From Minisyncoccia bacterium (GTDB lineage: Bacteria; Patescibacteriota; Minisyncoccia; Phycocordibacterales; XYD1-FULL-46-19): a stretch of 47,544 nt of DNA. Below, piece by piece: positions 13,380 through 41,895 of this stretch. The position numbers and the translations under genes are program-made. The number at the start of each line of letters is the position of its first letter. Position 1 is the first letter of the stretch. Location: positions 1 through 47,544 of the forward strand of contig JBFIHK010000002.1 of the NCBI GenBank assembly GCA_041601795.1, in the 5' to 3' direction. The notes under the pieces are model-generated. The model was not told where the DNA came from. It did no database searches and saw nothing but the letters and a program-made list of their open reading frames with translations.

Positions 13380-13586
13380 ATGGCTCGACAGTTTTTCCAA
13401 GTATTTTTTTATGATGAATTAGGACGTTGTTTGTGCCAATGTCCTAAAGTGTGGGGTCTTAATTTAGACCATGCCATTAGGCGTGTTCGAGACAAAAGAC
13501 CAGACCTTGAGGAAACTTATGTTTACGGCAAGAGATTACCCAAAAAATCTCGCACCCAAATGATGGGTGGCAGAGAGATTCATTGA
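13380..13586 (+). CDS. Small hypothetical protein (68 aa, Cys-containing)
   Basis: Strong RBS ggaggag 7 nt upstream of the ATG. A strong terminator follows. No recognisable family. Confidence 0.55.
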   Translation: MARQFFQVFFYDELGRCLCQCPKVWGLNLDHAIRRVRDKRPDLEETYVYGKRLPKKSRTQMMGGREIH

Positions 13587-13600
13587 TAAGTGGATCTCGC

Positions 13601-13634
13601 ACGGGCCCGACTTTTAGTCGGTGCCCGTTTTTTC
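13601..13634 (+). terminator. Intrinsic terminator
   Basis: acgggcccgac-tttta-gtcgg(t)gcccgt followed by tttttt. Confidence 0.8.
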
Positions 13635-13665
13635 TTTTTGTTAAAGATTTTGCTAAAATACTCTG

Positions 13666-14223
13666 ATGGCATTATTTACAGGTAAAGGCGACGGGGGTAC
13701 AACTAAAACTTTCGGCTGTAATCAAAGAGTATCTAAAAGCTCTAACGTGGCTGAAGCACTAGGCACTTTAGATGAGGTGAATTCTTTTTTAGGTGTTTGT
13801 AAGGAAAAAGCTCGAGCGAGTTTTTCTGTACCACCTTACGATATGCCTTTGTCACAATTATTACATCAAACTCAAGGCAATTTGTTTATTGTACAAGCTG
13901 AACTAGCTGGAGCTGAAAAAACAATCACTAAAGTCAAAGTGGTTGAAACTGAAAATATAATCAATGAAGTTGAAAAAATGATGCCACCCATTACTACTTT
14001 TTTTATTTCTGGTGGCACAGAATTAGCGGCTCATTTAGATTTTGCTCGAACGCTGGCCAGAAGAGCTGAGCGTCAGGTGGTGGGAGTTAAAGATGAGGGA
14101 GTACAAAAAATTGGGGCTGACACCCTGGCTTATTTAAACCGTCTATCTAGTTTATTGTACGCCCTGGCTAGACTTACTAACCATTTATCTGGTATAAAGG
14201 AGGAGTCGCCTAGATATAAGTAG
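13666..14223 (+). CDS. PduO-type ATP:cob(I)alamin adenosyltransferase family protein
   Basis: N-terminal TGKGDGGTT motif plus helical-bundle-length protein (185 aa). Confidence 0.8.
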   Translation: MALFTGKGDGGTTKTFGCNQRVSKSSNVAEALGTLDEVNSFLGVCKEKARASFSVPPYDMPLSQLLHQTQGNLFIVQAELAGAEKTITKVKVVETENIINEVEKMMPPITTFFISGGTELAAHLDFARTLARRAERQVVGVKDEGVQKIGADTLAYLNRLSSLLYALARLTNHLSGIKEESPRYK

Positions 14224-14235
14224 GCGATAATAGAT

Positions 14236-14308
14236 GGTGCCTATGGTGTAACGGTTAACACTGAGGTTTGTGGAACCTTCGATTCGGGTTCGATTCCCGA
14301 TAGGCACC
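14236..14308 (+). tRNA. tRNA-His (anticodon GUG) with encoded G-1
   Basis: G(-1)-GTGCCTA...GAGGT-TTGTGGA-ACCTT...CGGGTTCGATTCCCG-TAGGCAC-C. G-1 pairs with C73. Confidence 0.9.
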
Positions 14309-14519
14309 CAAAAATAATAAGTTTAAACTGAAAGTTTGAACGATTGTATTTTTGGTGTTGATCTATCCGGAATCGAAAGACGGAGGCGGTACACAAGACG
14401 AGGAGAAAAACGACGAGTGCTTGTCGCCGAGTCCGGGGAGGAAGCACTTAGTGAACGAAGACCGGAGGGATGAGTGAACTTAGTGACTTGACCCCGATTC
14501 CCGATAGGCACCCAAAAAT
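14309..14519 (+). repeat. tRNA-His-linked trailing element bounded by a perfect 24-nt direct repeat of the tRNA 3' end
   Basis: gattcccgataggcacccaaaaat at 14292-14315 and again at 14496-14519. Antisense box ccggaatcgaa at 14367-14377 (10/11). Confidence 0.8.
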
Positions 14520-19200: not shown

Positions 19201-19738
19201 GTCTATTTGTCTGATTGGTTATTAGTTTTGTTTCTTCGCCGGTCGAATCATTTTTTTGTCTAGTTTTTAAAATATCTTCCAAGGCTGTTTTGTAGGATTG
19301 GGGGTAAGATTTTCCAAGTTCATTTTTGGGGTCATTAGTTTCATTCGGAGAAGTAGCCTCAACATTTGGTTTTGAGGTATCAGAAGGTAGATCTGATTCT
19401 GAGTTTTCTAAAGGTGGAGTTTTGATTTCTGAAATGTTTTCTTGAAGTGTCTTTTTTGGGGCTTGAGTTTCTTCTTCGTGTTTTAATTTTTTATATAATG
19501 GTTCTAATTTGTCTGCTAAATTCACCCCAATTGTTTCTTCGGGAGTGTTTACTTGATTGTTAAAAGGAGTTCTTTCTTGAGGCGTTTCTTTTGTTTCAAG
19601 TTTTAAATTTATTTCTGTGTGGTCATTGAAATTTCGTTTCAATTCTTCCATCGTTTCTTGGTCTCTAAGGTCTGGTTTTCGGGTGATTCTAGAGCCTTCC
19701 TTAGGTTCATTTTTATTGAAAGAATATTCTTGATTCAT
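16259..19738 (-). CDS. Large orphan protein (1159 aa), charged low-complexity N-terminal third
   Basis: Long uninterrupted ORF. No signal peptide, TM segment or enzymatic motif recognised. Internal repeated motif YPxxYKxAxxDIxxT occurs twice. Confidence 0.75.
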   Translation of the reverse strand: MNQEYSFNKNEPKEGSRITRKPDLRDQETMEELKRNFNDHTEINLKLETKETPQERTPFNNQVNTPEETIGVNLADKLEPLYKKLKHEEETQAPKKTLQENISEIKTPPLENSESDLPSDTSKPNVEATSPNETNDPKNELGKSYPQSYKTALEDILKTRQKNDSTGEETKLITNQTNRLKDNTLVPKFDTTDRNQPKDLPNKEILQAAYDRENNPNPDYPPTYKKAVADIKETLETRNKTAKENTETPFNEADLDKNIDPAFKENLDLSDHIEVEGSKKELLPPETIKEIKENLASDGLIENIEKVASRAEEVMAEIESLPDDKKEKVKYGLNTLGYRIDKWKNEKIANILEKSATKFKNPNENNQDLRDQDTLTRFLHGLASGRRGKAEQVENIINNTQNKQGGFLTSAGNIGRPIGTALKISRILSDVGAGAPLRSVMLIASGVEEISRGTKEARLSGDDVLRKKAERNTSLKWHEKEAIIKKGQKEGKTIEEIEEEISIQETARETANNLDNTLYGSLTRKMRSYDELKESRQRLQRVARSISKGKKKNINKLDEARLMLAGMSQGVAQWQNKFWLSRVEKKLNKIENDDKLASSKKELKKQKLFASYENKLTEMERMISGYGTIDVLAMTAKNVETASKGVVLAMMADTLYKAATHVYNLALDKSEYFESILTQDKNTPDDLEPDILPEGPIRYSAEKDAESNPLGDIFKSITDQESNDDIPPIPYRPDINLEDINRKPYSRLALFENTGANVITDPYGKVSVVYEVGQNGDFKTLDQTLRRVVMQAYDDKTPEFFDKVEAARLENVLANIREVIINKHAIAGLNPNTVGEYVKFSDGQLIISDYDKFNRDVFKPLLDRATEKIDQDSPIIKYAQATGEGTWQQMLADKYESKESVIEPNFHHQETQISPEAPTERTPKDISVLEKQMEAKTPLESIKTEVDTNLNHTASILHEKYNFPQGLANSISHYEKDFNITGLAENGDIKPGSKFDVLVNLLNGERSILLTDAKGNLDTNQLVIFNNLVENSNNPQAILSALDITRSLNWTPDGELKLAQALVNPDRPALWQALLGKDIVPDNIKVKIDGTKLSLHKIGGFQGSLMIDFATKKVSVGRLLSQDGWKTDSARFFSYSLNENTFEGALSKALNIIKQAQNK

Positions 19739-27716: not shown

Positions 27717-28880
27717 ATGAAAGACAAACAAATAGAAAGTTTAATAAAAGATGAAAAAAAGCGTCAGCAGAAGGGGATAAATCTAATAGCATCGGAAAAC
27801 TATGTTTCAGATGATGTGTTAAAGGCTTTAGGTTCAGAACTAGTCAATAAATATGCCGAAGGTTACCCAGAAGCCCGTTATTATGGTGGTAATAGTGTGG
27901 TCGATAAAATAGAGAAGTTGTGTCAGAAAAGAGCTTTGAAGGCTTTTAAATTGTCTGAAAAAGATTGGAGTGTGAATGTGCAACCCCTGTCTGGTTCGCC
28001 GGCTAACCTTGCTGTTTATACCGCTTTAGTGCCTCAAGGGGGAAAAATTATGGGCCTTGATTTAGTCGATGGGGGGCATTTAACTCATGGCTATAAAGTT
28101 TCAGTAACTGGTAAGTTTTGGACTCAAGTGGCCTATGGAGTAGATCCAGAGACAGAAGTTTTAGATTATGAAGAGATAAAAAAAATTGCTCACCAAGAAA
28201 AACCAGCTCTGATTGTGGCTGGATTCACAGCTTATCCGCGAAAAATAGATTGGCAGAAATTTAGAGCTATCGCAGATAGCAGTGGAGCAATTTTAATGGT
28301 GGATATGTCGCATGTGGCAGGACTTATAGCAGGTGGAGTTTATCCCACGCCTTTCTCTTATGCTGATGTAGTGACCACCACAGTTCATAAAACCTTACGG
28401 GGTCCTAGGGCAGCGATGATTTTTTCCCGTCTTGAGTATGCTCAAAAAATAGACAAAGCTGTTTTCCCAGGTTTACAAGGTGGGCCTCATGTAAATCAAA
28501 TAGCTGCTACTGCTGTGGCTTTAGAAGAAACAATGGCGCCAGAGTTTAAAATTTATGTGGAGCAGGTGATTAGAAACGCCAATGTTCTAGCTGAAGAATT
28601 AACTAAACTTGGCTGGCGGCTGGTAACAGGTGGCACTGACTCGCATTTAATTTTAGTTGATACTTGGCTGAACGGGCAAGGTATTTCCGGCGGAGAAGCA
28701 AGTAAAAAGTTAGAACAAGCTGGTATTATTGTAAATAAAAATACTATTCCGGGGGACAAAAGAAGTCCCACTGATCCATCGGGTATTCGTTTAGGGGTGG
28801 CCGCCGAAACTACTAGAGGTAAAAAAGAAGTTGATATGGTATCTATTGCGGGGGAAATAGATCAGATTTTACGCTCTTAA
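27717..28880 (+). CDS. glyA: Serine hydroxymethyltransferase
   Basis: INLIASENY, SGSPANLAVY and the PLP-lysine motif TTTVHKTLRGPR. Confidence 0.95.
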   Translation: MKDKQIESLIKDEKKRQQKGINLIASENYVSDDVLKALGSELVNKYAEGYPEARYYGGNSVVDKIEKLCQKRALKAFKLSEKDWSVNVQPLSGSPANLAVYTALVPQGGKIMGLDLVDGGHLTHGYKVSVTGKFWTQVAYGVDPETEVLDYEEIKKIAHQEKPALIVAGFTAYPRKIDWQKFRAIADSSGAILMVDMSHVAGLIAGGVYPTPFSYADVVTTTVHKTLRGPRAAMIFSRLEYAQKIDKAVFPGLQGGPHVNQIAATAVALEETMAPEFKIYVEQVIRNANVLAEELTKLGWRLVTGGTDSHLILVDTWLNGQGISGGEASKKLEQAGIIVNKNTIPGDKRSPTDPSGIRLGVAAETTRGKKEVDMVSIAGEIDQILRS

Positions 28881-28881
28881 T

Positions 28882-29304
28882 ATGATTCTTAAAATAAAAA
28901 AATTAAATTCTTTGGCTAAAGTTCCACATTATGCACATTCAACTGATGCTGGGCTTGATTTATGTACGGTCGAAAAAAAGGTGGTGCCGGCCGGTGGGCG
29001 AGCCTCTATTTCTACAGGGCTCGCTTTTGAAATTCCAGATGGTTTTGTGGGCTTAGTATGGGATAAAAGTGGTTTAGCTTTTAAACAAGGGTTAACCTCA
29101 CTGTCGGGAGTCCTTGATTCTGGCTACCGAGGGGAACTTTTATTGTGCTTATTTAATACTACAACAGAAGATTATGTTTTTAATGTTGGTGATAAAGTCG
29201 CTCAATTATTAATTCAGCCAGTGGTTCAGGTGAAAATAGAAGAGGTTGTCACACTGACTGATTCAAGCCGAGAAGAAGGTGGTTTTGGTTCAACGGGTAA
29301 GTAA
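28882..29304 (+). CDS. dut: dUTP diphosphatase
   Basis: DAGLDL, VLDSGYRGEL and C-terminal GGFGSTG motifs. Confidence 0.92.
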   Translation: MILKIKKLNSLAKVPHYAHSTDAGLDLCTVEKKVVPAGGRASISTGLAFEIPDGFVGLVWDKSGLAFKQGLTSLSGVLDSGYRGELLLCLFNTTTEDYVFNVGDKVAQLLIQPVVQVKIEEVVTLTDSSREEGGFGSTGK

Positions 29305-29371
29305 TTAAAAAGTGGCCAAAACAGATAAATGGCTCTAGTCAAGGGTCTTTTTTGTGATATAGTGAACATAA

Positions 29372-31087
29372 ATGGTAAAAAGTAACTTAGAAAAAGCAAT
29401 TAAAGAAGAATTGCGTCATTTGGGCGTTAAAAGTCCTAAATTTGACTTAGAGCATCCACAGGATTTGGCTAGAGGTGATTATTCTACTAACGTGGCTATG
29501 GTTTACGCTAAAGTTTTAGGTCGGGACCCAATCGAGCTAGCCGGTGATATTGTTCAAAATCTAAAAGATAAAAATTTAGATTATGTGGAGAAAATCACAG
29601 TAGCTGGTTTTGGGTTTATTAATTTTTACCTTACTCCCCAATTTTTTGCTGATCAAACTAAACAAATTTTAGCCGACAAAAAATTTGGCCAGAATAGAGT
29701 TTTTAAAAAACATAAAACTATTATTGAGTATACCGATCCTAATTTATTTAAAGTTTTTCATATTGGCCATTTAATGAGTAATACTATTGGTGAAGCTTTA
29801 TCACGGTTATTGGAGTGGAATGGAGCTGAAGTCAAGCGGGCTAACTATCAAGGAGATGTTGGTATGCATGTAGCCAAAGCGGTTTATGGTATGCGTGGGA
29901 AACCTTGGACTGTTTTGAAATTAAAATTATTTGGTCGGACTAGAACTAGAGTAGAGTTTTTAGGTCAGGTTTATGCTGAGGGGGCTAAGGTTTTTGAGGA
30001 AGACAAAAAATTAGCTGAAGATATTAAAGTTATTAATAAAAAAATATATGAAGGGAGTGATAAAACTATTTCCTATTTATATCATTTAGGACGAGCGTGG
30101 AGCTTGGACTACTTTGAAACTATTTATAAACGCTTGGGGACTAAATTTGATTTTTATTTTTTTGAAAGCGAGGCTGGTCCGGTGGGGAAGAGTTTAATTG
30201 AAAAAAATCTTAAAAACCAAGTTTTTGAAAAAAGTGATGGAGCAATTGTTTATAAGGGTGAGGCCGAAGGACTGCACACTCGAGTTTTTATGAATTCTGA
30301 AGGGTTGCCTACTTATGAAGCTAAAGAATTAGGAGTAGCTAAATTGAAAGAGTCTAAATATAAGTTCACTCATTCTGTTGTTATAACCGGCAGTGAGCAA
30401 TTAGATTATTTTAAAGTGGTATTAAAAGCTATGACTTTAGTGTTGCCAGATATTGCTAAAAAAATAACTCATATTACCCATGGTTTTTTAATGTTGCCAA
30501 CAGGTAAAATGTCTTCTCGTACCGGTGATGTGGTACCAGCTGAAACCCTCCTTGCTCAAATTGAAACTAAAATAGCCGCCAAGACAGTAGATAGAAGTTG
30601 GCCGAAAAAAGAAAAAAATATTATAGTTGAACAAATAGCTATTGGAGCTTTGAAGTTTTCTATTTTAAAACAGTCTCCGGGTAAGGATATAATTTTTGAT
30701 TTTGATAAGTCTTTGTCGCTAGAGGGAGACTCAGGGCCTTATCTTCAATATACAGCTGTTAGGGCTGGGTCTATTTTAACTAAAGCTAAAGAAATGAATT
30801 TAAGTTTAAGTGAAATTAAGCCCACAGCGGATATTTTAGATTTAGAGCGAAACCTTTATCTATTACCAGAAATAATAGAGCGGGCTGGCAGAGAAAATAG
30901 CCCCCAGTTGGTGGTGACTTATTTGCTCGAATTAGCCTCCGTTTTTAATGGTTTTTATGCTTCCACTAAAGTTTTAGATGCTGATAATATTTTAACTCCT
31001 TATCATTTAGCTTTAACTAAAGCCACTAGAAGAGTGCTTAAAAATGGTTTATCTGTTTTAGGAATTAAGGTGCCAGCAAAAATGTAA
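29372..31087 (+). CDS. argS: Arginine--tRNA ligase
   Basis: HIGH-type motif FHIGHLMSN, MSSRTG, and a C-terminal DALR anticodon-binding-like region. Confidence 0.92.
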   Translation: MVKSNLEKAIKEELRHLGVKSPKFDLEHPQDLARGDYSTNVAMVYAKVLGRDPIELAGDIVQNLKDKNLDYVEKITVAGFGFINFYLTPQFFADQTKQILADKKFGQNRVFKKHKTIIEYTDPNLFKVFHIGHLMSNTIGEALSRLLEWNGAEVKRANYQGDVGMHVAKAVYGMRGKPWTVLKLKLFGRTRTRVEFLGQVYAEGAKVFEEDKKLAEDIKVINKKIYEGSDKTISYLYHLGRAWSLDYFETIYKRLGTKFDFYFFESEAGPVGKSLIEKNLKNQVFEKSDGAIVYKGEAEGLHTRVFMNSEGLPTYEAKELGVAKLKESKYKFTHSVVITGSEQLDYFKVVLKAMTLVLPDIAKKITHITHGFLMLPTGKMSSRTGDVVPAETLLAQIETKIAAKTVDRSWPKKEKNIIVEQIAIGALKFSILKQSPGKDIIFDFDKSLSLEGDSGPYLQYTAVRAGSILTKAKEMNLSLSEIKPTADILDLERNLYLLPEIIERAGRENSPQLVVTYLLELASVFNGFYASTKVLDADNILTPYHLALTKATRRVLKNGLSVLGIKVPAKM

Positions 31088-31092
31088 TATAT

Positions 31093-34000
31093 ATGACAGA
31101 CAACAAAAATTCATCAAACAATAAAAGTGATTTGGCTAAAAACGAGGAAGAGGTGCTAAAGTTTTGGACAACTAACAAAATTTTTGAGCAATCCATGGCT
31201 AAGGAGTCTACTGGTGGTGATTTTGTTTTTTACGAAGGCCCACCAACCGCTAATGCTAAACCCGCTCTACACCACTTAGAAGCTAGAGCTTTTAAGGATG
31301 TTATTCCTCGTTATAAAACTATGAGAGGTTTCAAAGTAAGAAGAAAAGCCGGTTGGGATACTCACGGTCTACCAGTAGAACTTCAAGTTGAAAAAGCTTT
31401 AGGTTTAAAATCAAAAAAAGAAATAGAGGCTTATGGGATAGAAAAATTCAATCAACAGTGTCGGGCTGACGTGTGGAAGTTTTTGAACCTGTGGAGCGAT
31501 TTTACAAATAGAATAGGTTATTGGTTGGATCGTACTGACGAATATATTACATATAACAATTCTTATATTGAATCGGTGTGGAATATTTTAAAGACCACTA
31601 ACGACAAAGAATTGCTTTATAAGGATTATAAAGTTGTGCCCTGGTGTCCACGCTGTGGAACTGGGTTATCTAGTCATGAACTCGCTCAAGGCTATGCTGA
31701 AATTAAAGACTTATCTGTTTATGTAAAGTTTAAAATCGCAGGTCAAGACAATACTTATTTACTAGCTTGGACTACTACCCCTTGGACTTTGCCAGGCAAT
31801 GTGGCCTTAGCAGTGGGTAAGAATATAGCTTATGTTGAAATAGAGTTGGATAATAAAGACAGATTAATTTTAGCTAAGAGTAGATTAGAGGACGTTTTGG
31901 GGGAAAATAAATACACCGTGGAAAGAGAAATGAAGGGGAGCGATTTGGTAGGTCAAAATTATGAGCCTGCTTACTCTTATTTAACTGATAAATTTAAAGC
32001 TAAGGATGAAACAGCTTTTGCTAAAAGTTTTAAAGTCTATACAGCTGATTTTGTTACCACCGAAGATGGAACTGGTATTGTTCATACAGCAGTCATGTAT
32101 GGACAAGACGACTTTGAATTGGGTACCAAAGAAGGTTTACCCAAATTCCATTTAGTAAATGAAGACGGAACTTTTATTGAAGGTTGTGATTTTTTGTCAG
32201 GCAAATTTGTTCGCAGTGAAGAAGTGGCTATAGATATTATAAAAGATTTAGCTCATCGGGGTTTGTTGTTTAAAAAAGAAAAATACGCTCACACTTATCC
32301 GCATTGTTGGCGTTGTAAAACTCCTCTTATTTATTATGCTCGCGACTCTTGGTATATCAGAATGTCGAAGCTTAGAGATCAATTGGTGGCTGGTAATGAA
32401 AAAATTAACTGGGAACCAAGTCATATTAAGGAAGGCCGATTTGGTGAATGGTTGCGTGAGGTAAAAGATTGGGCTATTTCTCGTGAACGTTACTGGGGGA
32501 CTCCACTACCTATTTGGCAAGACGCTCAAGGTCAAATCACTGTTATTGGAAGCATAGATGAATTAAAACAAAAAACTAAAAAATCTGGTAATAGTTATAC
32601 TGTTATGCGCCACGGGCAGGCAGAAAACAATGTTAAAAATATAGTTAATTCCGATAACTCTACTCCAGTTTCTTTAACTGAAGTAGGTAAAGAACAAGTT
32701 GGGGCTCAAATAAAAAATTTACAAACTAAAAAAATAGATTTAATTTTTACTTCACCCCTTAAAAGAACAAAAGACACAGCCGATATGGTAGCGACCGCTT
32801 TAGGGGTGTCAGAAGTGGTTACAGATGATAGGTTGCAAGAAATAAATACGGGTGAATTTAGTGGACGTCCTGTGGCCGATTATCATAATTTTTTTGACAA
32901 GCCTGAAGATTATTTTTCTAAAACTCCAGCCGGAGGCGAAAATTTATTGGATGTTAAAAAAAGAGTAGGGGATTTTATTTATGAATTAGAACAAAAATAT
33001 CAAAATAAAAATATTTTAATCATTGGCCATGAATATCCTTTGTGGATGTTATTTGGAGTGGAGGTTGGGGCTGATGTTAAAAAATTAATTAATATGAAGG
33101 AGGATGAATTTATTCAAAATGCCGAAATTAGAGATTTAGATTTTGCACCTCTACCTCATAATGATATTTATGAACTTGATTTGCATAGGCCATATATAGA
33201 TCAGGTGGAAATTTTAAATGAACAAGGCGAAACTTTGACTAGAGTAAAAGAGGTGGCTGATGTGTGGCTTGATTCTGGCGCTATGCCGTTTGCTCAGGAC
33301 AATTATCCTTTTTCCATTTCTGACGAAGAGCTTTTGTATCCGGCTGATTTTATTTCAGAAGCCATCGATCAAACTCGGGGTTGGTTTTATACTCTGCATG
33401 CGGTGGGGATTTTAATGAGTAAAGGGCCGGCTTATAAAAATGTTATTTGTCTGGGACATATTTTAGATGCCGAAGGTAAAAAAATGTCTAAGTCTATTGG
33501 TAATATCATAGAACCTGATTTACTAATCAATAAATATGGTGTTGATGCCCTCCGTTTATGGATGTATTCAGTTAATCAACCAGGAGACTCTAAAAATTTT
33601 GATGAAAAAACCGTTGATGAAATAGTTAAAAAAGTCTTTAACTTATTAAATAATGTTTATGCTTTTTATGATCTTTATCAAGATAAATCTGTTTTGCCTC
33701 ATGCGGGTAATACCAACGTTCTTGATGTGTGGATCATCAACCGGTTAAACGAACTCCTTTCTAAGGGTACTTCTTATTTGGATGATTATAAAATCTTTGA
33801 AGCTAGTCGATTGATTCGTGATTTTGTAAATGATTTTTCTACTTGGTATGTCAGGCGATCGCGTGATCGGTTTAAAGAAGAGGGGACAGATAAAAAAGAA
33901 GCTTTAGCTACGACCAGATTTGTTTTATTGGAGCTAGCTAAATACATGGCTCCGTTCACACCATTTTTTGCTGAGAATTTATATTTAAAATTAAAACAAG

Positions 34001-34542
34001 AAGGTGGTCCTTCTAGCGTTCATTTGTCTGATTGGGCGACCGTTTCTACTCCTGACGAAAAGGTGCTTAATTTAATGGCTCAAACTAGAGAATTAGTGTC
34101 AGTGGGGTTAGAAAAAAGAGCTTCAAGTGGAGTTAAGGTTCGACAAGTTTTGGCTAGTATGAGTATTAATATAGAATTACCTGTTGAATATTTAGCTTTA
34201 ATTAGAGATGAAATCAATGTGAAAGAGGTGACAGTAAAAAAAGATCAAAAAGAGATGGTGGTGCTTGATTTTAATCTTACTCCCGAATTACAACAAGAAG
34301 GTTATGCTAGAGAGTTGATTCGTTTTATCCAAAACTTACGCAAAACCAAGAATTTGTTGCCAGCCGATAAAATTAAATTAAATATTAAAACAGCCTCAGA
34401 CGGGCAGGACCTAATTGATAAATTTAATGATGAAATAAAAAAAGCCGTCGGAGCTACTACTATTTTTGTTACACCTTTAGAATTAAAGGGAGAAAAAATA
34501 TCAGTAGATGGTATGGATTTTATTATCGCTTTAGAATTATAA
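31093..34542 (+). CDS. ileS: Isoleucine--tRNA ligase (type 2) with an inserted histidine-phosphatase (PGAM-like) domain
   Basis: PPTANAKPALHH, editing-domain TTTPWTLPGN, WAISRERYWGTPLPIW and KMSKS. About 200 aa between WGTPLPIW... and DLHRPYID carry RHGQAENN, SPLKRTKDTA and IIGHE motifs. Confidence 0.9.
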   Translation: MTDNKNSSNNKSDLAKNEEEVLKFWTTNKIFEQSMAKESTGGDFVFYEGPPTANAKPALHHLEARAFKDVIPRYKTMRGFKVRRKAGWDTHGLPVELQVEKALGLKSKKEIEAYGIEKFNQQCRADVWKFLNLWSDFTNRIGYWLDRTDEYITYNNSYIESVWNILKTTNDKELLYKDYKVVPWCPRCGTGLSSHELAQGYAEIKDLSVYVKFKIAGQDNTYLLAWTTTPWTLPGNVALAVGKNIAYVEIELDNKDRLILAKSRLEDVLGENKYTVEREMKGSDLVGQNYEPAYSYLTDKFKAKDETAFAKSFKVYTADFVTTEDGTGIVHTAVMYGQDDFELGTKEGLPKFHLVNEDGTFIEGCDFLSGKFVRSEEVAIDIIKDLAHRGLLFKKEKYAHTYPHCWRCKTPLIYYARDSWYIRMSKLRDQLVAGNEKINWEPSHIKEGRFGEWLREVKDWAISRERYWGTPLPIWQDAQGQITVIGSIDELKQKTKKSGNSYTVMRHGQAENNVKNIVNSDNSTPVSLTEVGKEQVGAQIKNLQTKKIDLIFTSPLKRTKDTADMVATALGVSEVVTDDRLQEINTGEFSGRPVADYHNFFDKPEDYFSKTPAGGENLLDVKKRVGDFIYELEQKYQNKNILIIGHEYPLWMLFGVEVGADVKKLINMKEDEFIQNAEIRDLDFAPLPHNDIYELDLHRPYIDQVEILNEQGETLTRVKEVADVWLDSGAMPFAQDNYPFSISDEELLYPADFISEAIDQTRGWFYTLHAVGILMSKGPAYKNVICLGHILDAEGKKMSKSIGNIIEPDLLINKYGVDALRLWMYSVNQPGDSKNFDEKTVDEIVKKVFNLLNNVYAFYDLYQDKSVLPHAGNTNVLDVWIINRLNELLSKGTSYLDDYKIFEASRLIRDFVNDFSTWYVRRSRDRFKEEGTDKKEALATTRFVLLELAKYMAPFTPFFAENLYLKLKQEGGPSSVHLSDWATVSTPDEKVLNLMAQTRELVSVGLEKRASSGVKVRQVLASMSINIELPVEYLALIRDEINVKEVTVKKDQKEMVVLDFNLTPELQQEGYARELIRFIQNLRKTKNLLPADKIKLNIKTASDGQDLIDKFNDEIKKAVGATTIFVTPLELKGEKISVDGMDFIIALEL

Positions 34543-34580
34543 AACTTTGTTTTTTGGATTAATACCTTTACTATTTATAG

Positions 34581-35186
34581 ATGAGTCATCAGCACTATCA
34601 CACTGAGGGTTTTATTTTAAAACAAACACCAGTTGGGGAAAAAGATTTATTGCTCGCTATTTTTACTCGAGATTTTGGTTTAGTCAGAGCTAAATTAAAA
34701 GCCGGTCGAAGCCTAGCTTCTAAAATGAGATTTCATGCTTCTTTGTTTTCTTGGGTGGAGGTATCTTTAATTAAAACTAAAGGGGACGCTTGGAAAATTG
34801 TCGGGTTAGATTCTAAGTCTTCTTTATTTGATTTAAAACAAAAACCTCATCAATATAAAATTGTCGACAATGTGATTTCAATGTTGTCTCGTATGGTGGT
34901 GGGTGAAAATCCTCAAGAAGAAATATTTACTGATTTAGTTGATTTTTTTTCAGTTATTAAGCAAGAAGTTGGAGTGGAAAAAGAAGAAGGGTCAAAATTA
35001 TTGACTAGTTTAGAGGTAATAATAGTTTTTAGAATTTTATATTATTTGGGGTATATTTCTCCAACTACAGAAATGCAAGATTTATTGCAGACTAAAATAG
35101 ATAACAGATTAATGTCTGTCGTTGCCAAACAAAGAAGACAAGTGATAGGAGTAATTAATCAAGCTTTTTATGCTTCAGGGATGTAA
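34581..35186 (+). CDS. recO: DNA repair protein RecO-like
   Basis: N-terminal OB-fold pattern TEGFILKQTPVGEKDLLLAIFTRDFGLVRAKLKAGRS. Short form (201 aa). Confidence 0.6.
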   Translation: MSHQHYHTEGFILKQTPVGEKDLLLAIFTRDFGLVRAKLKAGRSLASKMRFHASLFSWVEVSLIKTKGDAWKIVGLDSKSSLFDLKQKPHQYKIVDNVISMLSRMVVGENPQEEIFTDLVDFFSVIKQEVGVEKEEGSKLLTSLEVIIVFRILYYLGYISPTTEMQDLLQTKIDNRLMSVVAKQRRQVIGVINQAFYASGM

Positions 35187-35240
35187 GTTTTCCAATAAGT
35201 TATATTCTAGCTCTGTTTGGTCTATGGTATAATTTAATTT

Positions 35241-37139
35241 ATGTCAGATGAAAAAAAGAGCCCTATTGGGGAATTAGAAAAAACTTTATATAGCAAAACC
35301 ATAGAACCGGCACCACTTGTTCGGAGTAGGCTTAAGCCTAAGATGACATATGGTAAAAGAGCTCACCAGGTAAGCCCAGCTACAATTACTGGTGAAAAAG
35401 AGCAGACTTCTAATTCTTTTTTAACTAAACTTTTATTAATTACTTTTTCTTTTTTTATCGTTACTGTTGGGGTGGCTGGGTTTGTTTTGTGGCAAGGAGG
35501 AAACTCTGTCTCAGGGCAAAATATAAATTTTGATATCAAGGGTCCGGTAGCGGTGTCGGCTGGTGATGAAACTACTTTTCAAGTGCTAATGTCAAACAGT
35601 AATACTGTTCAATTGCAAAACGTTGTTTTAAACGTTGAGTTTCCAGCTGGGACTAAAATGGCTAGTACCACAGGTAGCACCAACACCAATCGTATTAGTG
35701 AAAATATTGGAGCTGTTGATCCAGGGTCTTTAGTTAATAAAAGTGTGAAAGCGATTTTTTTTGGTAACAAAGGTGAGGTTCAAGAAGTTAAGGCTACTAT
35801 AGAGTACAACATACCTGGGTCTCAGTCTTTGTATACTAAAAATGCTAATATTTCTTTTTCTATTGATTCTCCACCTGTAAATTTATCAGTTGAAGTACCA
35901 GATGAAATTACTTCAGGACAAGAAATGGCTTTAACTATAAATATGACTCCTCAATCAGAAGATAGTTTAGAGCCTATGCTGATTACCGTTTTATATCCAT
36001 CAGGTTTTAGTTTTTCTAGGTCAAGTCGCGAACCTACTTATGGGCAAAACACTTGGCTTGTTTCTAGTCCTAAAGCTGGTCAAACTGAAAACATTATTAT
36101 TTACGGGGTAATAGAAGGTGTAAGTGGGGCAGAAAAAATATTTCAAGTCACAGCTGGGGCTCAAGATTTAGTGTTAGAAGATGTGGTGGAATTGGTTTTT
36201 AATCAAACTTCAATCACTACAGTTTTAGCTTCAGCTTTTGTTGATTTAGGTTTAATTGTTAATGAAAAAGTTGGTTCTCAGGTGGTGGTATCAAGTGGAG
36301 ACAAAGTGACTGTGTCTTTGCCTTATAAAAATAATTTAGATACGGTTTTAAATGATGTTGAAATTAAGTTAAGTTTAGACAGTAATATTGATATTGCTGA
36401 GAGTATATCGGTTAGTAATGGGTTTTATAGTTCAACCAATAATCAAATTACTTGGAATAAAACTACCACCGATGCTTTTACCTCCTTAGCCCCCAATTCT
36501 TCGGGGAGGGTTAATTTTTCTTTTAGAGTGCCAGATTTAAGCTCGGGGCAAGTAGCCAATCCAACCATAGCTTTAAAGGCTAATTTTGTGGGTGTGAGAG
36601 AGGGAACTGGTTTTACTGGCCGTCAAATTACTGCTGACATAGAAACTAAAATTCAAGTAGCTTCAGCTGCCACAGTTACCAATCAGGCTTTTTACACTGG
36701 TGGACCTTTGCAAAACACTGGCCCCTTACCACCTAAGGTGGGCGAGGCAACTACTTATACTGTCACTTGGACAATAAATAATCCTTCCAATAATTTGCGC
36801 GATGTTTTGGTTAAAACCACTTTACCTGTCTATGTGGATTGGGAAAATAGATACTTGCCATTAAGTGAAGCTATATCTTTTAATGCCACTAGTCGCGAGG
36901 TGGTGTGGCAAGTAGGCCAATTAGAAGCTGGTGCGCGTGAAAAAAAGGTTTCTTTTCAGGTTGAACTAAACCCTAGTCTCTCTCAAGAGGGTACATCGCC
37001 TAACTTGACAAGTGAGGTTAGATTGTCTGGATTTGATACTTTTACTGATACGGTATTGAATAATACTGCTCGAGCAGTTAATATCAGGACATTAGCAGAT
37101 AGTAATTTTAATAATAGAGACGGTGTCGTGACCCCGTAA
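35241..37139 (+). CDS. Hypothetical membrane-anchored surface protein, beta-rich repeats
   Basis: One N-terminal TM (FLTKLLLITFSFFIVTVGVAGFVLW), then about 540 aa of Ser/Thr/Val/Asn-rich sequence resembling DUF11/CARDB-like Ig-fold repeats. Confidence 0.7.
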   Translation: MSDEKKSPIGELEKTLYSKTIEPAPLVRSRLKPKMTYGKRAHQVSPATITGEKEQTSNSFLTKLLLITFSFFIVTVGVAGFVLWQGGNSVSGQNINFDIKGPVAVSAGDETTFQVLMSNSNTVQLQNVVLNVEFPAGTKMASTTGSTNTNRISENIGAVDPGSLVNKSVKAIFFGNKGEVQEVKATIEYNIPGSQSLYTKNANISFSIDSPPVNLSVEVPDEITSGQEMALTINMTPQSEDSLEPMLITVLYPSGFSFSRSSREPTYGQNTWLVSSPKAGQTENIIIYGVIEGVSGAEKIFQVTAGAQDLVLEDVVELVFNQTSITTVLASAFVDLGLIVNEKVGSQVVVSSGDKVTVSLPYKNNLDTVLNDVEIKLSLDSNIDIAESISVSNGFYSSTNNQITWNKTTTDAFTSLAPNSSGRVNFSFRVPDLSSGQVANPTIALKANFVGVREGTGFTGRQITADIETKIQVASAATVTNQAFYTGGPLQNTGPLPPKVGEATTYTVTWTINNPSNNLRDVLVKTTLPVYVDWENRYLPLSEAISFNATSREVVWQVGQLEAGAREKKVSFQVELNPSLSQEGTSPNLTSEVRLSGFDTFTDTVLNNTARAVNIRTLADSNFNNRDGVVTP

Positions 37140-37144
37140 AATAT

Positions 37145-38503
37145 ATGACAAATACCGACACAATGAAATCTTTAGTGGCCCTAGCTAAAAGGCGGGGGTT
37201 TATTTATCAGGGTTCAGACATTTATCAAGGTTTGGCTGGAACTTATGATTACGGTCCTTTAGGAGTGTTATTAAAAAATAATATCAAAAATTCTTGGTGG
37301 CAAACTTTTGTGGTTGACCGAGAAGACATTTTTGGCTTAGACGCTGCCATTTTAATGAACTCTAAGGTCTGGGCTGCTAGTGGTCACGTGGACGGTTTTT
37401 CCGATCCTTTAGTTGAAGATCTAACAACTAAAAAAAGATACAGAGCTGACCATTTATTGGAAGAGGCGGGGGTAAAAACAGAAGGTTTAAATCTAGATCA
37501 AATGTCTAAAGCCATAGAGAAAAATAATATTACCAGCCCTGATGGTAATAAGGTTTCTAATGTGAGGCAGTTTAATATGATGTTTGAAACAAAAGTAGGT
37601 GCGACCGGTGGCGATGTGTCTTATTTGCGTCCAGAAACAGCTCAGGGAATTTTTGTCAATTTTAAAAATGTTATAGATTCTTTTCACCCTAAAATTCCTT
37701 TTGGTATTGGTCAAATTGGTAAAGCTTTTCGCAATGAAATTACTCCACGGGATTTCCTATTTCGAGTTAGAGAATTTGAACAAATGGAAGTAGAATATTT
37801 TGTTAGACCCGATGATTGGGAAAGTCATTTTGACGCTTGGCAAAAAGACATTAGCTCCTGGGCTTGTAGTATTGGTATTGATAAAGAAAAAATTCATGCT
37901 AAGGAAATTGGCCCCGAAGACAGAGCTCATTATTCTAAAAAAACTATTGATTTTGAGTTTGATTATCCGTTTGGCCGAAAAGAGCTTTTTGGTTTAGCTT
38001 ATAGAGGAGACTATGATTTGTCTTGTCACAGTAAATCAAGCGGGGTGAGTTTAGATTATTTAGATCAAGAGACGAATACTAAATATATACCTCATGTCAT
38101 TGAACCGTCTTTAGGGGTAGATAGAGCTGTTTTAGCGGTGCTAGTTTCAGCTTATCGGGAAGATGTTTTAGGAGAAGAGCCCCGTACTTTTTTAGCCCTA
38201 CCTTATTTGGTGGCACCAATTAAAGTAGCTGTTTTTCCACTTCTTAAAAACAAACCACAGTTGGTGGAAAAAGCCAGAAGTATTTTTAAAGATTTAAAGT
38301 CTGAGTTGTCTTTTGTGATGTGGGATGACAATGGCAATATTGGTAAGCGTTATCGTCGACAAGATGAAATTGGCACTCCTTTTTGTGTGACAGTAGACTT
38401 CGATACCATGGAAGATGGTACCGTTACCGTTCGTGATCGAGATACTGGAGGGCAGGTGAGGGTGGCTATAGATGACTTATTAAATCACATTAAACAACAG
38501 TAA
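37145..38503 (+). CDS. glyQS: Glycine--tRNA ligase (alpha2 type)
   Basis: Class II motifs: YLRPETAQGIFVNF, FRNEITPR, GVDRAV. C-terminal anticodon-binding domain. Confidence 0.92.
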   Translation: MTNTDTMKSLVALAKRRGFIYQGSDIYQGLAGTYDYGPLGVLLKNNIKNSWWQTFVVDREDIFGLDAAILMNSKVWAASGHVDGFSDPLVEDLTTKKRYRADHLLEEAGVKTEGLNLDQMSKAIEKNNITSPDGNKVSNVRQFNMMFETKVGATGGDVSYLRPETAQGIFVNFKNVIDSFHPKIPFGIGQIGKAFRNEITPRDFLFRVREFEQMEVEYFVRPDDWESHFDAWQKDISSWACSIGIDKEKIHAKEIGPEDRAHYSKKTIDFEFDYPFGRKELFGLAYRGDYDLSCHSKSSGVSLDYLDQETNTKYIPHVIEPSLGVDRAVLAVLVSAYREDVLGEEPRTFLALPYLVAPIKVAVFPLLKNKPQLVEKARSIFKDLKSELSFVMWDDNGNIGKRYRRQDEIGTPFCVTVDFDTMEDGTVTVRDRDTGGQVRVAIDDLLNHIKQQ

Positions 38504-38521
38504 AATTTTAACAAAAATATT

Positions 38522-39577
38522 ATGAGTTCAATCGATAAACAAACATTAGTTATTAGCACCGGCACCATTGTTAGAACTATTTTAGTGTTAGCAGTCGCTT
38601 TTTTGATGTACTTGTTGCTTGATTTAATGTTTATTATTTTAACTTCAGTGGTGATCGCTTCTGCTGTAGAGCCAGCTACTAGATGGCTTTTGACTTACAA
38701 AATTCCTCGTGTTTGGTCGGTACTTGGTATTTATGCTTTGTCTTTTGTGGTTATTTTAGGCTTTTTATATTTCTTTATTCCACCACTTTTTGTCGATATT
38801 TCTCGTTTAGCTGAAACTCTACCCGAAAAAATAGAAGCCATTAGTTTATTTGATCAAATTGGTCCGCTGGCTGAATTTACAGGAGGGCCTTCATCTAGTT
38901 TGTCTTTAGAAAACATGTTACGCGACTTACAAATACTTTTAGCTGATTTATCGGCAGGAAGTTTTTCTACTGCCACTACTGTTTTTGGTGGAGCTTTTAG
39001 TTTTATTTTAATTATGGTGCTGTCTTTCTATTTAGCGGTTCAAGAAAGGGGAATAGAAAACTTTTTACGTATTATTGTACCTGTTCAATACGAAGCCTAT
39101 GTTATAGACCTATGGAATAGATCTCAATATAAAATTGGTCAGTGGATGAAAGGGCAATTACTTTTAGCTTTAATTGTGGGAGTGTTAGTTTATTTAGGTT
39201 TAACTATTTTAGGCGTTAAATATGCTTTAACCTTAGCTATCCTAGCGGCTATGTTTGAGCTTATTCCTATTTTCGGTCCAATTCTATCAGCTATTCCAGC
39301 CGTGCTACTTGCTTTTATAGACAATACTACCTTAGGTTTAATGACAATTGGCTTATATATTATTATTCAGCAATTTGAAAATCATCTTATTTATCCTTTG
39401 GTGGTTAAAAGTATAGTTGGAGTGCCAGCTATTATTGTGATTATTGCTTTGGTTGTTGGAGGACAATTGGCTGGCTTTTTGGGTATTATTTTGGCCGTAC
39501 CGGTAGCGACGGTGTTTATGGAGATGGCCCGTGATGCCGAAAAAAGAAAACTCAAAAGTTTATCTCAAAATGTTTAA
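38522..39577 (+). CDS. AI-2E/PerM (UPF0118) family transporter
   Basis: Eight-TM pattern with a conserved ELIPIFGP-like segment. Confidence 0.75.
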   Translation: MSSIDKQTLVISTGTIVRTILVLAVAFLMYLLLDLMFIILTSVVIASAVEPATRWLLTYKIPRVWSVLGIYALSFVVILGFLYFFIPPLFVDISRLAETLPEKIEAISLFDQIGPLAEFTGGPSSSLSLENMLRDLQILLADLSAGSFSTATTVFGGAFSFILIMVLSFYLAVQERGIENFLRIIVPVQYEAYVIDLWNRSQYKIGQWMKGQLLLALIVGVLVYLGLTILGVKYALTLAILAAMFELIPIFGPILSAIPAVLLAFIDNTTLGLMTIGLYIIIQQFENHLIYPLVVKSIVGVPAIIVIIALVVGGQLAGFLGIILAVPVATVFMEMARDAEKRKLKSLSQNV

Positions 39578-39595
39578 GTAGAAAACTGTATTATT

Positions 39596-41032
39596 ATGCC
39601 AAACAAGACATTTTACATTACTACCACTTTGCCTTATGTTAATTCTGATCCTCATATAGGTTTTGCTATGGAATTGGTTCGAGCTGATATTATTGCTCGT
39701 TATAAAAAATTATTAGGGCAAGAAGTGTTTTTTAACACGGGTACTGATGAACATGGGCAAAAAATTTACGATGGAGCTAAAAAGGCCGGGTTAGACACTA
39801 AAACTTATGTCGATAATTTTGCGGCTAAGTTTAAAAATTTAATTCCACTTTTAAATATCGACCCCGAAGTAAATTTTATTCGCACCACTGACAAGTCTCA
39901 TATAAAATCAGCCCAAACTTTTTGGCAGAGATGTGATGCTGGTGGTTTTATTTATAAAAAAAACTATCAAGTTAAATATTGTGTTGGTTGTGAGTTAGAA
40001 AAGACAGATTCTGATTTAGTGGACGGTCATTGTCCGCTTCACCCTAAAATTGATTTAGAGCTAAGAGATGAAGAAAATTATTTTTTTAAGTTTTCGGCTT
40101 TTGGAGATAAATTGTTAGATTTTTATGATAAAGAGTCGGGGTTTGTGGTTCCTAGTTGGCGCCTGAAAGAAATTAGAAATTTTGTTCAAGGGGGGTTGCA
40201 AGATTTTAGTATTTCTAGATTGAAAACTAAAATGCCTTGGGGAATACCGGTTCCTGGTGATGACAGTCAGGTGATGTATGTTTGGTTTGATGCTTTAGTC
40301 AATTATATTTCAGCTTTAGGCTGGCCAGATAATGTTGATTCTTTTAATAAATGGTGGCCAGCGGTTCAATATGCTGGCAAAGACAATTTACGCCAACAGT
40401 CGGCCATGTGGCAGGCTATGTTAATGTCGGTGGGGCTTACTCCTTCTAGGCGGGTGGTTATTAACGGTTTTATAAATGGTCCCGATGGTAGCAAAATGAG
40501 TAAAAGTTTAGGTAATGTGGTTGCCCCTGAAGATTTAGTAGGCGAGTTTGGTGCTGAAGCAGTGCGCTATTATATTGCTCGTCATTTTCAAAATTTTGAA
40601 GATTCAGATTTTTCACTCATTAGGTTTAAAGAAGCTTATAATGCCAACTTAGCCAATGGGTTGGGTAATTTGGTGTCACGGATTATGAAAATGGCTACCA
40701 CTTACAATGTGTCTATTGCAGATAAGGGCAAAGAAGAAAACTTTTTTACAGTCGAGAACCTAGAGTTAGAAAACTATAACATCAATAAATTTGTCGATGA
40801 TATTTGGGTCGATATTAGTAAACTCGATGAATATATTCAAAAAGAAGAGCCATTTAAAAAAATAAAGGTAGATAAAACCGGTGCTGAAAAAGATGTAGCC
40901 TATTTGTTGGCTTCTTTGTTTAAGGTGGCTTGTAAATTGGAACCTGTGATGCCTGACACAGCTCAAAAAATAAAAACACTTATTTTAGATAATAAAATGC
41001 CAACCGAGGCTTTGTTTTTGCGCAAAGATTAA
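39596..41032 (+). CDS. metG: Methionine--tRNA ligase (short form, no C-terminal tRNA-binding domain)
   Basis: TTTLPYVNSDPHIGFA, zinc knuckle CVGCE...CPLH, and KMSKSLGN. Confidence 0.92.
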   Translation: MPNKTFYITTTLPYVNSDPHIGFAMELVRADIIARYKKLLGQEVFFNTGTDEHGQKIYDGAKKAGLDTKTYVDNFAAKFKNLIPLLNIDPEVNFIRTTDKSHIKSAQTFWQRCDAGGFIYKKNYQVKYCVGCELEKTDSDLVDGHCPLHPKIDLELRDEENYFFKFSAFGDKLLDFYDKESGFVVPSWRLKEIRNFVQGGLQDFSISRLKTKMPWGIPVPGDDSQVMYVWFDALVNYISALGWPDNVDSFNKWWPAVQYAGKDNLRQQSAMWQAMLMSVGLTPSRRVVINGFINGPDGSKMSKSLGNVVAPEDLVGEFGAEAVRYYIARHFQNFEDSDFSLIRFKEAYNANLANGLGNLVSRIMKMATTYNVSIADKGKEENFFTVENLELENYNINKFVDDIWVDISKLDEYIQKEEPFKKIKVDKTGAEKDVAYLLASLFKVACKLEPVMPDTAQKIKTLILDNKMPTEALFLRKD

Positions 41033-41037
41033 TTTAA

Positions 41038-41895
41038 ATGATAAACAAACCTTATTTAATAGATGCTCACTCCCATATCAATTTTGATCGTTTTGACGAT
41101 GACAGGCAGGAGGTGATAGATAGAGCGCTTGCAAAAAATATTTGGCAAGTTAATGTCGGTACTAGTAGAAAAACATCTACTCAAGCAGTGGCTTTGGCTC
41201 AAAAATACAATCAAGGAGTTTATGCTATTGTTGGTTTACATCCGGTGCACACTAGTAGTTCTCATCTAGATCAAGCAGAATTAAGTCCAGAAAAAGCCGA
41301 GCAGTTGTTTACAGAGGGTGAGCAATTTGATTTAGATTTTTATACTTCTTTAGCTAAAGAGCGAGGAGTCGTTGGTGTAGGGGAATGTGGCTTGGACTAT
41401 TTTCGAGCTGATGCTAGCCAGAAAGAACTTCAGATTAAAAATTTTGTCGATCAGATTCATTTAGCTAACACTGTAGATAAACCTCTGATGCTTCACTTGC
41501 GTTCTGGACAAACAGATTCGGCCTATTTAGATGCAATAGATATCTTAAAACAAGAATCTAAAGTGGTAGGGGACGTTCATTTTTTTGCCGGTAGTGTAGC
41601 TGAAGCTCAAAAATTTTTAGATTTAGGATTTTACATTTCTTTTACTGGTGTCATTACTTTTGCTCGTGATTATGAAGAGTTGGTTAAATATGTTCCTTTA
41701 GATAGATTGCTTATAGAAACAGATTGTCCATATGTAGCCCCTGTGCCATATAGGGGTCGTCGTAATGAACCAGCGTATGTTGAAGAAGTAGCCAAAAAAG
41801 TAGCCGAGTTAAAAAAAATAAGCCTAGAGGTAGTAGCGGAGAAAACAACTGACAATTGGTTAAAGCTTTTTGGGGGTCATTTAAATAATAATTAA
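41038..41895 (+). CDS. tatD: TatD-family metal-dependent hydrolase/DNase
   Basis: IDAHSHINF, GECGLDY and IETDCPY motifs. Confidence 0.88.
   Translation: MINKPYLIDAHSHINFDRFDDDRQEVIDRALAKNIWQVNVGTSRKTSTQAVALAQKYNQGVYAIVGLHPVHTSSSHLDQAELSPEKAEQLFTEGEQFDLDFYTSLAKERGVVGVGECGLDYFRADASQKELQIKNFVDQIHLANTVDKPLMLHLRSGQTDSAYLDAIDILKQESKVVGDVHFFAGSVAEAQKFLDLGFYISFTGVITFARDYEELVKYVPLDRLLIETDCPYVAPVPYRGRRNEPAYVEEVAKKVAELKKISLEVVAEKTTDNWLKLFGGHLNNN

Follow-up and report, generated by a model that had tools for sequence, protein, structure and literature searches.

The ileS gene in a 47,544-nucleotide stretch of contig JBFIHK010000002.1 (Minisyncoccia bacterium, GenBank assembly GCA_041601795.1, positions 1 to 47,544 of the forward strand; this whole stretch is hereafter called the window) encodes a type-2 isoleucyl-tRNA synthetase (IleRS) in which connective peptide 3 (CP3) contains what its sequence marks as a complete histidine phosphatase. 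More specifically, a phosphatase of about 190 residues stands in place of a short hairpin that is normally bracketed by a zinc knuckle. The protein is an aminoacyl-tRNA synthetase (aaRS) with an accreted domain, and this form of the enzyme is widespread, not a one-off. The phosphatase domain looks catalytically live, and we consider that an active phosphatase functionally coupled to IleRS is slightly better than an even bet (probability about 0.55).

The nested domain and its host synthetase

The original prediction described the IleRS open reading frame as continuous over 1149 residues, and the list of open reading frames bears this out (coordinates of all features are collected in Table 1). 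The product is a functional-looking type-2 IleRS. It scores 862.1 bits against the ileS equivalog TIGR00392, above the cut-off of 621.4, and Pfam finds tRNA-synt_1 (PF00133), divided in two by His_Phos_1, together with Anticodon_1 and DUF5915. The type-2 C-terminal organisation is present, with DUF5915 at residues 1040-1148 and the IleRS2 structures 8c8w/8c8v as best structural match. P. megaterium IleRS2 (PmIleRS2) 8c8w is the closest solved IleRS (phmmer E=8.5e-235; Foldseek template modelling (TM) score of 0.79 for the whole AlphaFold2 model). Both PmIleRS2 (8c8u/8c8v/8c8w) and the Thermus thermophilus enzyme (TtIleRS, 1ile) are alike to the window IleRS in domain order and in the DUF5915 C-terminus.

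The N-terminal part of the synthetase holds the first Rossmann half, the CP core, the CP1 editing domain, CP2 and the first half of CP3, ending in GSIDELKQ. The C-terminal part resumes with the remainder of CP3 (DLHRPYID...), followed by the second Rossmann half and the anticodon-binding and type-2 C-terminal domains. Signature, editing and CP-core zinc residues of IleRS are all invariant among homologues; in the N-terminal part these include WTTTPWT at 226-232, C185, C188, C405 and C408, the motif at 460-469 and the CP1 editing residues G326, G328, H331 and D340. The class I signature is non-canonical and belongs to the A/GXHH type, which has been described for many IleRS2 enzymes and tied to mupirocin hyper-resistance (Brkic et al., PMC10485003).

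All the histidine phosphatase motifs quoted in the original prediction are found at their places in the translation: MRHGQ at residue 505, LTEVGKEQ at 528, SPLKRT at 554, EINTGEF at 583, GGENLL at 614 and IIGHEY at 643, between IDELKQ at 488 and DLHRPY at 696. A profile scan with PF00300 is highly significant, both within the whole protein (E=3e-31, 109.1 bits against a gathering score of 21.7, profile positions 3-170 of 194) and on the insert segment alone (E=8e-33, 114.2 bits, same cut-off). The curated NCBIfam subfamilies are a different matter, and the insert alone stays below every cut-off: its best NCBIfam match is the RNase H/acid phosphatase family (PRK07238, NF005567; 90.3 vs 326), and the same holds for archaeal dPGM (NF038349; 85.2 vs 225), CobC (TIGR03162; 78.2 vs 162.9), PspA (NF045917; 73.6 vs 350) and SixA (TIGR00249; 34.9 vs 74.5). 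By its profile matches, then, the insert is a complete branch-1 histidine phosphatase that lies outside every curated subfamily tested.

Structure prediction and conservation agree with the claim of a complete domain. The AlphaFold2 model of the whole protein, built from a 74-sequence alignment, has a predicted local distance difference test (pLDDT) score of 88.8 and a predicted TM score of 0.80. In this model the insert is a discrete, confidently predicted lobe, with pLDDT values of 83-96 per 10-residue block; modelled alone, it reaches 86.3. Foldseek matches the insert with probability 1.00 and TM scores of 0.72-0.78 to PspA, GpgP, PhoE, CobC and a riboflavin-pathway HFP (4ij6, 6s2q, 1h2e, 9mmh). 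The full catalytic set of R506, H507, R558, E583 and H646 is intact in 115 of 116 homologues. Mean column identity of the insert is 55% across 120 homologues, despite catalytic residues that are invariant or 99% conserved; the region of the substrate cap (residues 584-616), as a rule the part that determines specificity, is among the least conserved stretches (0.42), whereas the phosphate pocket is invariant. The insert is under purifying selection, with a ratio of nonsynonymous to synonymous substitution rates (dN/dS) of 0.15 against an 89%-identical homologue (L087), compared with 0.05 and 0.115 for the two IleRS parts. Its net charge is -7, and embedded domains are acidic in general (mean -4.1).

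The flanking segments had been said to be parted usually by a short linker only, and alignment with 8c8w agrees: query residue 492 pairs with 475 and query residue 694 with 485, so that about 200 residues replace about 9. The original prediction also placed the insertion in the catalytic core of IleRS. Its location within IleRS stands, while the core assignment has to be replaced by the CP3 subdomain of the catalytic body, as judged from published CP3 boundaries and our alignment. CP3 spans residues 459-526 in ScIleRS and 473-534 in CaIleRS; in ScIleRS it is directly preceded by the linker 453-ARDWNVSRNRYWG-465, and in TtIleRS it has a zinc motif (PMC7191050, PMC7955072). Query residue 495 corresponds by alignment to about residue 492 of ScIleRS, which lies within CP3, and the insertion is therefore inside this connective-peptide subdomain and not in a strand of the Rossmann core. 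CP3 is variable and surface-exposed, and its topology differs among IleRSs (PMC7191050). The CP2-CP3 linker (ARDWNVSRNRYWG) lines the pocket for tRNA A76 and reveromycin (PMC7955072). A CxxC...CxxC zinc knuckle brackets the site in PmIleRS2, in TtIleRS and in insert-less Parcubacteria IleRSs (loci L001, L002 and L005, see below). No cysteine is found on either flank of the window insert (32512-32571 and 33178-33260), and the zinc knuckle is absent.

We considered whether the arrangement could be an artefact, that is, a chimeric assembly, an intein or an element removed before the mature protein is formed. The sole public sequencing run with this sequence is a marine metagenome, and its independently assembled Logan contig is identical over 32231-34700, across both junctions; at the level of contigs there is thus no sign of a chimera. 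A survey of IleRSs from the candidate phyla radiation (CPR) returned the same insertion in every close homologue. All 120 of the nearest protein clusters at 90% identity carry PF00133 together with PF00300; these proteins are 56-89% identical to the window IleRS and 1111-1197 residues long, and come from NCBI, JGI, ENA and Logan, on contigs of up to 688 kb. In addition, a scan of species-representative genomes of GTDB gave at least 468 loci encoding a relative, and the best 80 of these, which we inspected, are all colinear in the order ileS-N, insert, ileS-C. With an independent contig over both junctions and the same in-frame architecture in all of these clusters and loci, mis-assembly was rejected.

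An intein or other removable element was rejected as well. The insert had been called not intein-like, and this is supported by its His_Phos fold and by the lack of any Hint or intein Pfam match, or of an N-terminal Cys/Ser nucleophile pattern, in the window IleRS. The accompanying statement that there are no Cys/Ser-...-HisAsn junctions needs refinement: a conserved H689-N690 dipeptide lies near the C-terminal junction and is the one feature that speaks for an intein, but the next residue is D691 (clade consensus E) and not Cys, Ser or Thr. A recent horizontal insertion does not fit either. GC content is 0.32 in the insert and 0.35-0.37 in the flanks, and GC content at third codon positions is 0.20 and 0.27-0.29, respectively, so that the composition of the insert is slightly below that of its flanks; this near-host composition and the presence of the insert in relatives down to 56% identity indicate that the insert is old. 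As far as sequence data show, explanations by artefact are refuted, and we regard their probability as practically nil.

Distribution, operon association and genomic surroundings

The embedded form is the sole form of ileS at all 80 inspected species loci, an indirect argument that the enzyme would charge tRNA(Ile) and edit Val despite its insert. Source names include Paceibacterota, Nomura-, Kaiser-, Wolfe-, Campbell-, Taylor-, Zambryski- and Vogelbacteria as well as Minisyncoccia, and for a large part of Paceibacteria (Parcubacteria) the nested architecture is the ancestral state. The remark in the original prediction that a phosphatase in an aaRS is unusual is therefore right when measured against the literature and textbook aaRSs, and wrong within this clade, where every cluster and locus surveyed has it and it is the norm.

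A search with the insert only, among 5.8 billion proteins, retrieved at least 100 IleRSs or IleRS fragments among the best 150 representatives at 50% identity. Several of these IleRSs are variants on the same theme. One (P0269; 1419 residues, 816 bits to the ileS equivalog) keeps its zinc knuckle intact, is without an insert in CP3 and carries one His_Phos copy after DCWFESGSMPYAS and another at the start of the anticodon-binding region. Another (P0259) has His_Phos at all three sites, a third (P0243) has two in tandem within CP3, and tandem arrays of 2-4 His_Phos domains occur among the IleRS variants. The two sites outside CP3 thus lie after the motif DxWFESGSMPYA and at the start of the anticodon-binding domain. 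We also observed an IleRS fragment of 1066 residues (P0258) with a domain of the REP-associated tyrosine transposase/IS200-like type in its CP1 region (NF047646, 81 bits vs a cut-off of 80), His_Phos in CP3 and a GNAT acetyltransferase after the DxWFESG motif.

The same search found free-standing His_Phos proteins of 175-214 residues. The nearest three (P0121, P0122 and P0123) are 39-43% identical to the insert over the whole length (E 1e-29 to 1e-32). The insert aligns end-to-end with free proteins of 189-192 residues, over all but the first residue of these, M-KLNNKYYILRHG... pairing with KKSGNSYTVMRHG... at the beginning and ...GEIRELN with ...AEIRDLDF at the end; a whole gene product is therefore nested in IleRS. 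The return linker that leads back into CP3 is absent from the free-standing proteins, whose ends read ...EIRELN.

Each of the three genes lies immediately upstream of an insert-less ileS (966-987 codons) on Parcubacteria contigs, in three contexts. Gene order is argS-hisphos-ileS-recO in L001 and in L002-L004, and mbnB-like-hisphos-ileS-recO in L005; the free genes occupy positions 10001-10570 in L001, 6001-6579 in L002 and 2116-2685 in L005. In L002 and L005 the free gene overlaps the preceding gene by 4 nucleotides, which suggests translational coupling within an operon. The partner IleRSs share only 37-44% identity with the window IleRS, and both the HYGH and the GxHH type occur among them, so the association of His_Phos with ileS spans divergent IleRS lineages. 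This adjacency in related Parcubacteria is a Rosetta-stone link of the phosphatase to IleRS. The argS-...-ileS-recO neighbourhood is common to these loci and the window, but in the former the phosphatase is a separate polypeptide and the partner IleRS retains the CP3 zinc knuckle that the window IleRS is without. In the window the order is argS-ileS-recO with no separate His_Phos gene; among the 80 embedded loci, argS synteny is seen at 42 and recO lies downstream of ileS at 46. No second His_Phos copy was found within +/-5 kb of these 80 loci, nor elsewhere in the window. The free proteins next to ileS are strongly basic, with net charges of +7, +12 and +18.

Four more distant free-standing homologues do not adjoin ileS, and one of them is beside enolase. 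At locus L090 (4001-8212), a more distant free-standing His_Phos protein (P0131) is encoded beside a Metallophos phosphoesterase and an AAA protein, with a RelA_SpoT-domain protein of 349 residues on the opposite strand; no link to ileS was seen there.

A parallel arrangement exists in valyl-tRNA synthetase (ValRS). One of the proteins found (P0169) is a ValRS, and 70 of its 119 neighbouring ValRS clusters (P0292-P0410) carry one to three His_Phos domains. The clusters with His_Phos are named Gracilibacteria or Peregrinibacteria and come from contigs of up to 1.37 Mb. Most of the copies (73 of 83) are located between WCISRQxWWG and DxxDTWF, the site homologous to the CP3 insertion in IleRS. 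The nested ValRSs (e.g. P0292-P0301, P0314) therefore resemble the window protein in domain family and in homologous position within a paralogous class Ia synthetase, and differ in the synthetase itself, in the CPR class and in often having two or three tandem copies. The full catalytic set is present in 54 of 82 ValRS copies; 28 of 82 are without the Glu and some without the second His, a result that depends on the alignment. Ser, Ala or Gly often stands at the position of the Glu, and Asn sometimes at that of the second His.

In a neighbour-joining tree computed from an alignment to the hidden Markov model, the IleRS inserts are sister to the ileS-adjacent free clade, the ValRS inserts stand apart and some variant copies cluster with other free-standing proteins. 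Bootstrap values are only 7-17%, so this tree allows no conclusion on fusion versus fission or on the number of captures.

Table 1. Coordinates of the ileS gene, its parts, the nested phosphatase and the adjoining genes (window positions)
Feature	Position	Strand	Basis or remark
argS (ArgRS), 5 nt upstream of ileS	29372..31087	+	Pfam tRNA-synt_1d, DALR_1, Arg_tRNA_synt_N
ileS, type-2 IleRS with nested phosphatase	31093..34542	+	single uninterrupted open reading frame, 1149 aa + stop
IleRS N-terminal part, aa 1-493	31093..32571	+	aligns to 8c8w residues 10-475
Class I signature, non-canonical A58-L-H-H61	31264..31275	+	sequence; clade consensus GIHH (A/GXHH type)
Inserted histidine phosphatase module, aa 494-695	32572..33177	+	Pfam, free-protein alignment, AlphaFold2, Foldseek, dN/dS
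Pfam His_Phos_1 match, aa 504-669	32602-33099	+	PF00300
RHG motif R506-H507-G508, predicted phospho-accepting His	32608..32616	+	R and H 100%, G 98% in 120 homologues
N513, phosphate-pocket Asn	32629..32631	+	100% conserved
R558 (SPLKR), second phosphate-binding arginine	32764..32766	+	100% conserved
E583, predicted general acid/base	32839..32841	+	99% conserved; single E-to-D change in 116
H646, second catalytic histidine	33028..33030	+	100% conserved
Return linker F684-APLPHNDIYEL-695	33142..33177	+	P688 100%, H689 98%, N690 94%; embedded form only
IleRS C-terminal part, aa 696-1149	33178..34539	+	aligns to 8c8w residues 485-915
KMSKS, aa 797-801	33481-33495	+	K797, M798, S799, K800 invariant
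recO-like gene downstream of ileS	34581..35186	+	RecO_N E=5.8e-11

In the window, ileS is part of a dense housekeeping block (27717-41895) with four aaRS genes, namely argS, ileS, a class II aaRS gene (37145-38503) and metG (39596-41032). The block also contains genes for serine hydroxymethyltransferase (SHMT), dUTPase, a DUF11 surface-type protein, an AI-2E transporter and TatD, besides the recO-like gene. Seven tRNA genes are located within 1078-14309 (Lys-TTT, Arg-GCG, Ser-TGA, Arg-TCT, Val-TAC, Leu-GAG and His-GTG), none of which is a tRNA-Ile gene. An open reading frame of 1159 codons on the reverse strand (16259-19738) has no Pfam match at E<=0.001.

Possible functions of the nested phosphatase

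We propose that the domain is a phosphomonoesterase that would form a phospho-His507 intermediate with E583 as the acid, and that its activity would be coupled to the synthetase carrying it. The module may first have been an operon partner of ileS and later have been built into the enzyme. Coupling is favoured over neutral hitch-hiking because the domain recurs at the homologous site of ValRS, occupies extra sites and occurs in tandem copies, because its adjacency to ileS survives a changed upstream neighbour, and because the embedded and the adjacent form are mutually exclusive locally.

What such a coupled phosphatase would act on is a more tentative matter. With low certainty, IleRS would supply substrate binding, and the phosphatase would strip a terminal phosphate from something that IleRS holds. 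Our favoured, though circumstantial and rather doubtful, candidate is a phosphorylated tRNA acceptor end, with a 3'-phosphate or 3'-pyrophosphate left by nucleases or toxins; removal of the phosphate at the 3' end would make the tRNA chargeable again. Several observations favour this candidate. CP3 follows directly after the linker lining the A76/reveromycin pocket, and the combination of a variable cap with a fixed phosphate pocket fits a substrate that is positioned by IleRS. The free proteins are basic and the embedded ones acidic, as expected if the free form itself must bind RNA. Finally, pyrophosphorylation of the tRNA 3' end is an established toxin mechanism (10.1101/2021.04.30.441581; PMC11559606).

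An extension of this proposal, which we hold to be at least as doubtful, is that IleRS carries its own tRNA-end repair or immunity enzyme, which would unblock tRNA(Ile) bearing a 3'-phosphate or 3'-pyrophosphate while it is bound; the ValRS and operon arrangements would be parallels. Such blocked ends could be produced by toxSAS-type toxins, or by nucleases that leave 3'-phosphates and stem from hosts, phages or competitors. If this were true, detoxification would be coupled directly to the recharging of tRNA(Ile).

A number of points weigh against a coupled phosphatase and, in particular, against one acting on tRNA ends. The closest solved relatives all have small molecules as substrates and neither RNA nor protein, and we know of no His_Phos enzyme that acts on RNA 3' ends. 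With scores below every curated subfamily cut-off, the sequence gives no clue to the substrate. Small basic proteins abound in AT-rich CPR genomes, which makes the contrast in charge weak evidence, and co-expression by itself can give rise to operon adjacency and to fusion. The degenerate ValRS copies suggest that, in some lineages at least, the domain serves for binding or structure, and independent capture in IleRS and ValRS is not proven at the tree support obtained.

The alternative that survives best, possible though rather unlikely in our judgement, is a metabolic phosphatase of the PhoE/PspA/CobC type (acting, for example, on phosphoserine or a sugar phosphate) that works independently of IleRS and was fused into a permissive surface loop. 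Its gene would have happened to be in the ileS operon, and the fusion would do no more than keep the two co-expressed in a streamlined genome; reduction and frequent gene fusion are general traits of CPR genomes. The best sequence and structure matches are indeed small-molecule phosphatases (PspA 4ij5/4ij6, GpgP, PhoE, CobC and the riboflavin-pathway HFP), a variable and surface-exposed CP3 (PMC7191050) is plausibly permissive, and SHMT, a user of serine, is encoded two genes upstream in the window and also near ileS in L001. However, the insert reaches no subfamily threshold, and a poorly conserved substrate-cap region would be odd for a dedicated metabolic enzyme. A neutral fusion does not predict recurrence in CP3 of ValRS, two other sites in IleRS and arrays of 2-4 copies, nor does it sit well with an adjacency of His_Phos and ileS that persists despite a changed upstream neighbour (L005 vs L001/L002).

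Alternatively, the phosphatase may protect the synthetase itself by acting in cis on it, or on a partner protein, and removing an inhibitory phosphate placed there by a HipA/HipT-like kinase toxin, or it may be a regulatory phospho-switch. Kinase toxins of the HipA/HipT-like type phosphorylate class I aaRSs near the ATP site, and SixA, PGAM5 and Sts are His_Phos enzymes that are protein phosphatases. The domain is tethered in the catalytic body beside the CP2-CP3 linker of the active-site cleft, the way in which it multiplies in tandem and varies among lineages resembles conflict systems, and SixA is among the weak NCBIfam matches. Nevertheless we consider this explanation very unlikely: the SixA score (35 vs 74.5 bits) is below the cut-off, no kinase was seen in the neighbourhood within the window, and the idea is purely analogical, no phospho-acceptor site being identifiable in the sequence.

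A mainly structural or binding role, in which the domain would be an expansion of CP3 that binds phosphate or the tRNA backbone or serves as a scaffold and in which catalysis would be dispensable, is hardly probable. It would account for the ValRS copies that lose the Glu (28 of 82) or the second His and retain the phosphate-binding RHG and second Arg, and multi-copy arrays would fit. In the IleRS clade, however, 115 of 116 homologues preserve all five catalytic residues, two of which, the general acid and the second His, are not required of a domain that only binds; the embedded domains are also net acidic.

Known relatives and significance

The nested domain is alike in fold, size and R-H-G...R...E...H set to PspA/iPSP1 (4ij5), PhoE/YhfR (1h2e, 1ebb) and GpgP Rv2419c (4pz9), and the same likeness extends to the CobC alpha-ribazole phosphatase (6e4b, 6nru) and the riboflavin-pathway HFP (9mmh), with TM scores of 0.72-0.78. 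These small branch-1 phosphatases are free-standing, act on small metabolites and share only 20-27% identity with it, whereas the window domain is nested in an aaRS. Two families provide partial precedents. In PRK07238, the Rv2228c-type RNase H/acid phosphatase, a CobC-like His_Phos domain is joined to a nucleic-acid enzyme, but the fusion is end-to-end and not nested. NF040702 describes IleRSs with an embedded GNAT domain and is thus a precedent for a foreign catalytic domain in IleRS, although an acetyltransferase and not a phosphatase; the window IleRS stays below its cut-off (315.7 vs 1999) and has no GNAT domain by Pfam.

Full-text literature searches brought up no account of a histidine phosphatase within IleRS or ValRS, and two recent papers on IleRS evolution and structure do not mention a nested phosphatase. 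Public annotations read 'isoleucine--tRNA ligase' or 'class I tRNA ligase family protein' only. Because they name the ligase alone, the predicted second enzymatic activity is invisible in genome-based metabolic reconstructions.

AaRSs are among the most studied enzymes, and their accessory domains, whether for editing, tRNA binding or signalling, each revealed new biology. No rationale is known for a phosphatase with an apparently intact active site inside the catalytic body of IleRS, and canonical aminoacylation and editing involve no phosphomonoester. The pattern is nevertheless broad, since it covers much of one bacterial class, is mirrored in ValRS of a sister class and has an operon partner elsewhere. 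For the biology of aaRSs and of CPR bacteria, its main interest lies in the clade-wide conservation, the Rosetta-stone operon partner and the ValRS parallel. Finding the substrate could uncover a quality-control or repair step in translation, or a defence against toxins directed at tRNAs or synthetases; alternatively, it could uncover a peculiarity of the host-dependent lifestyle of Patescibacteria.

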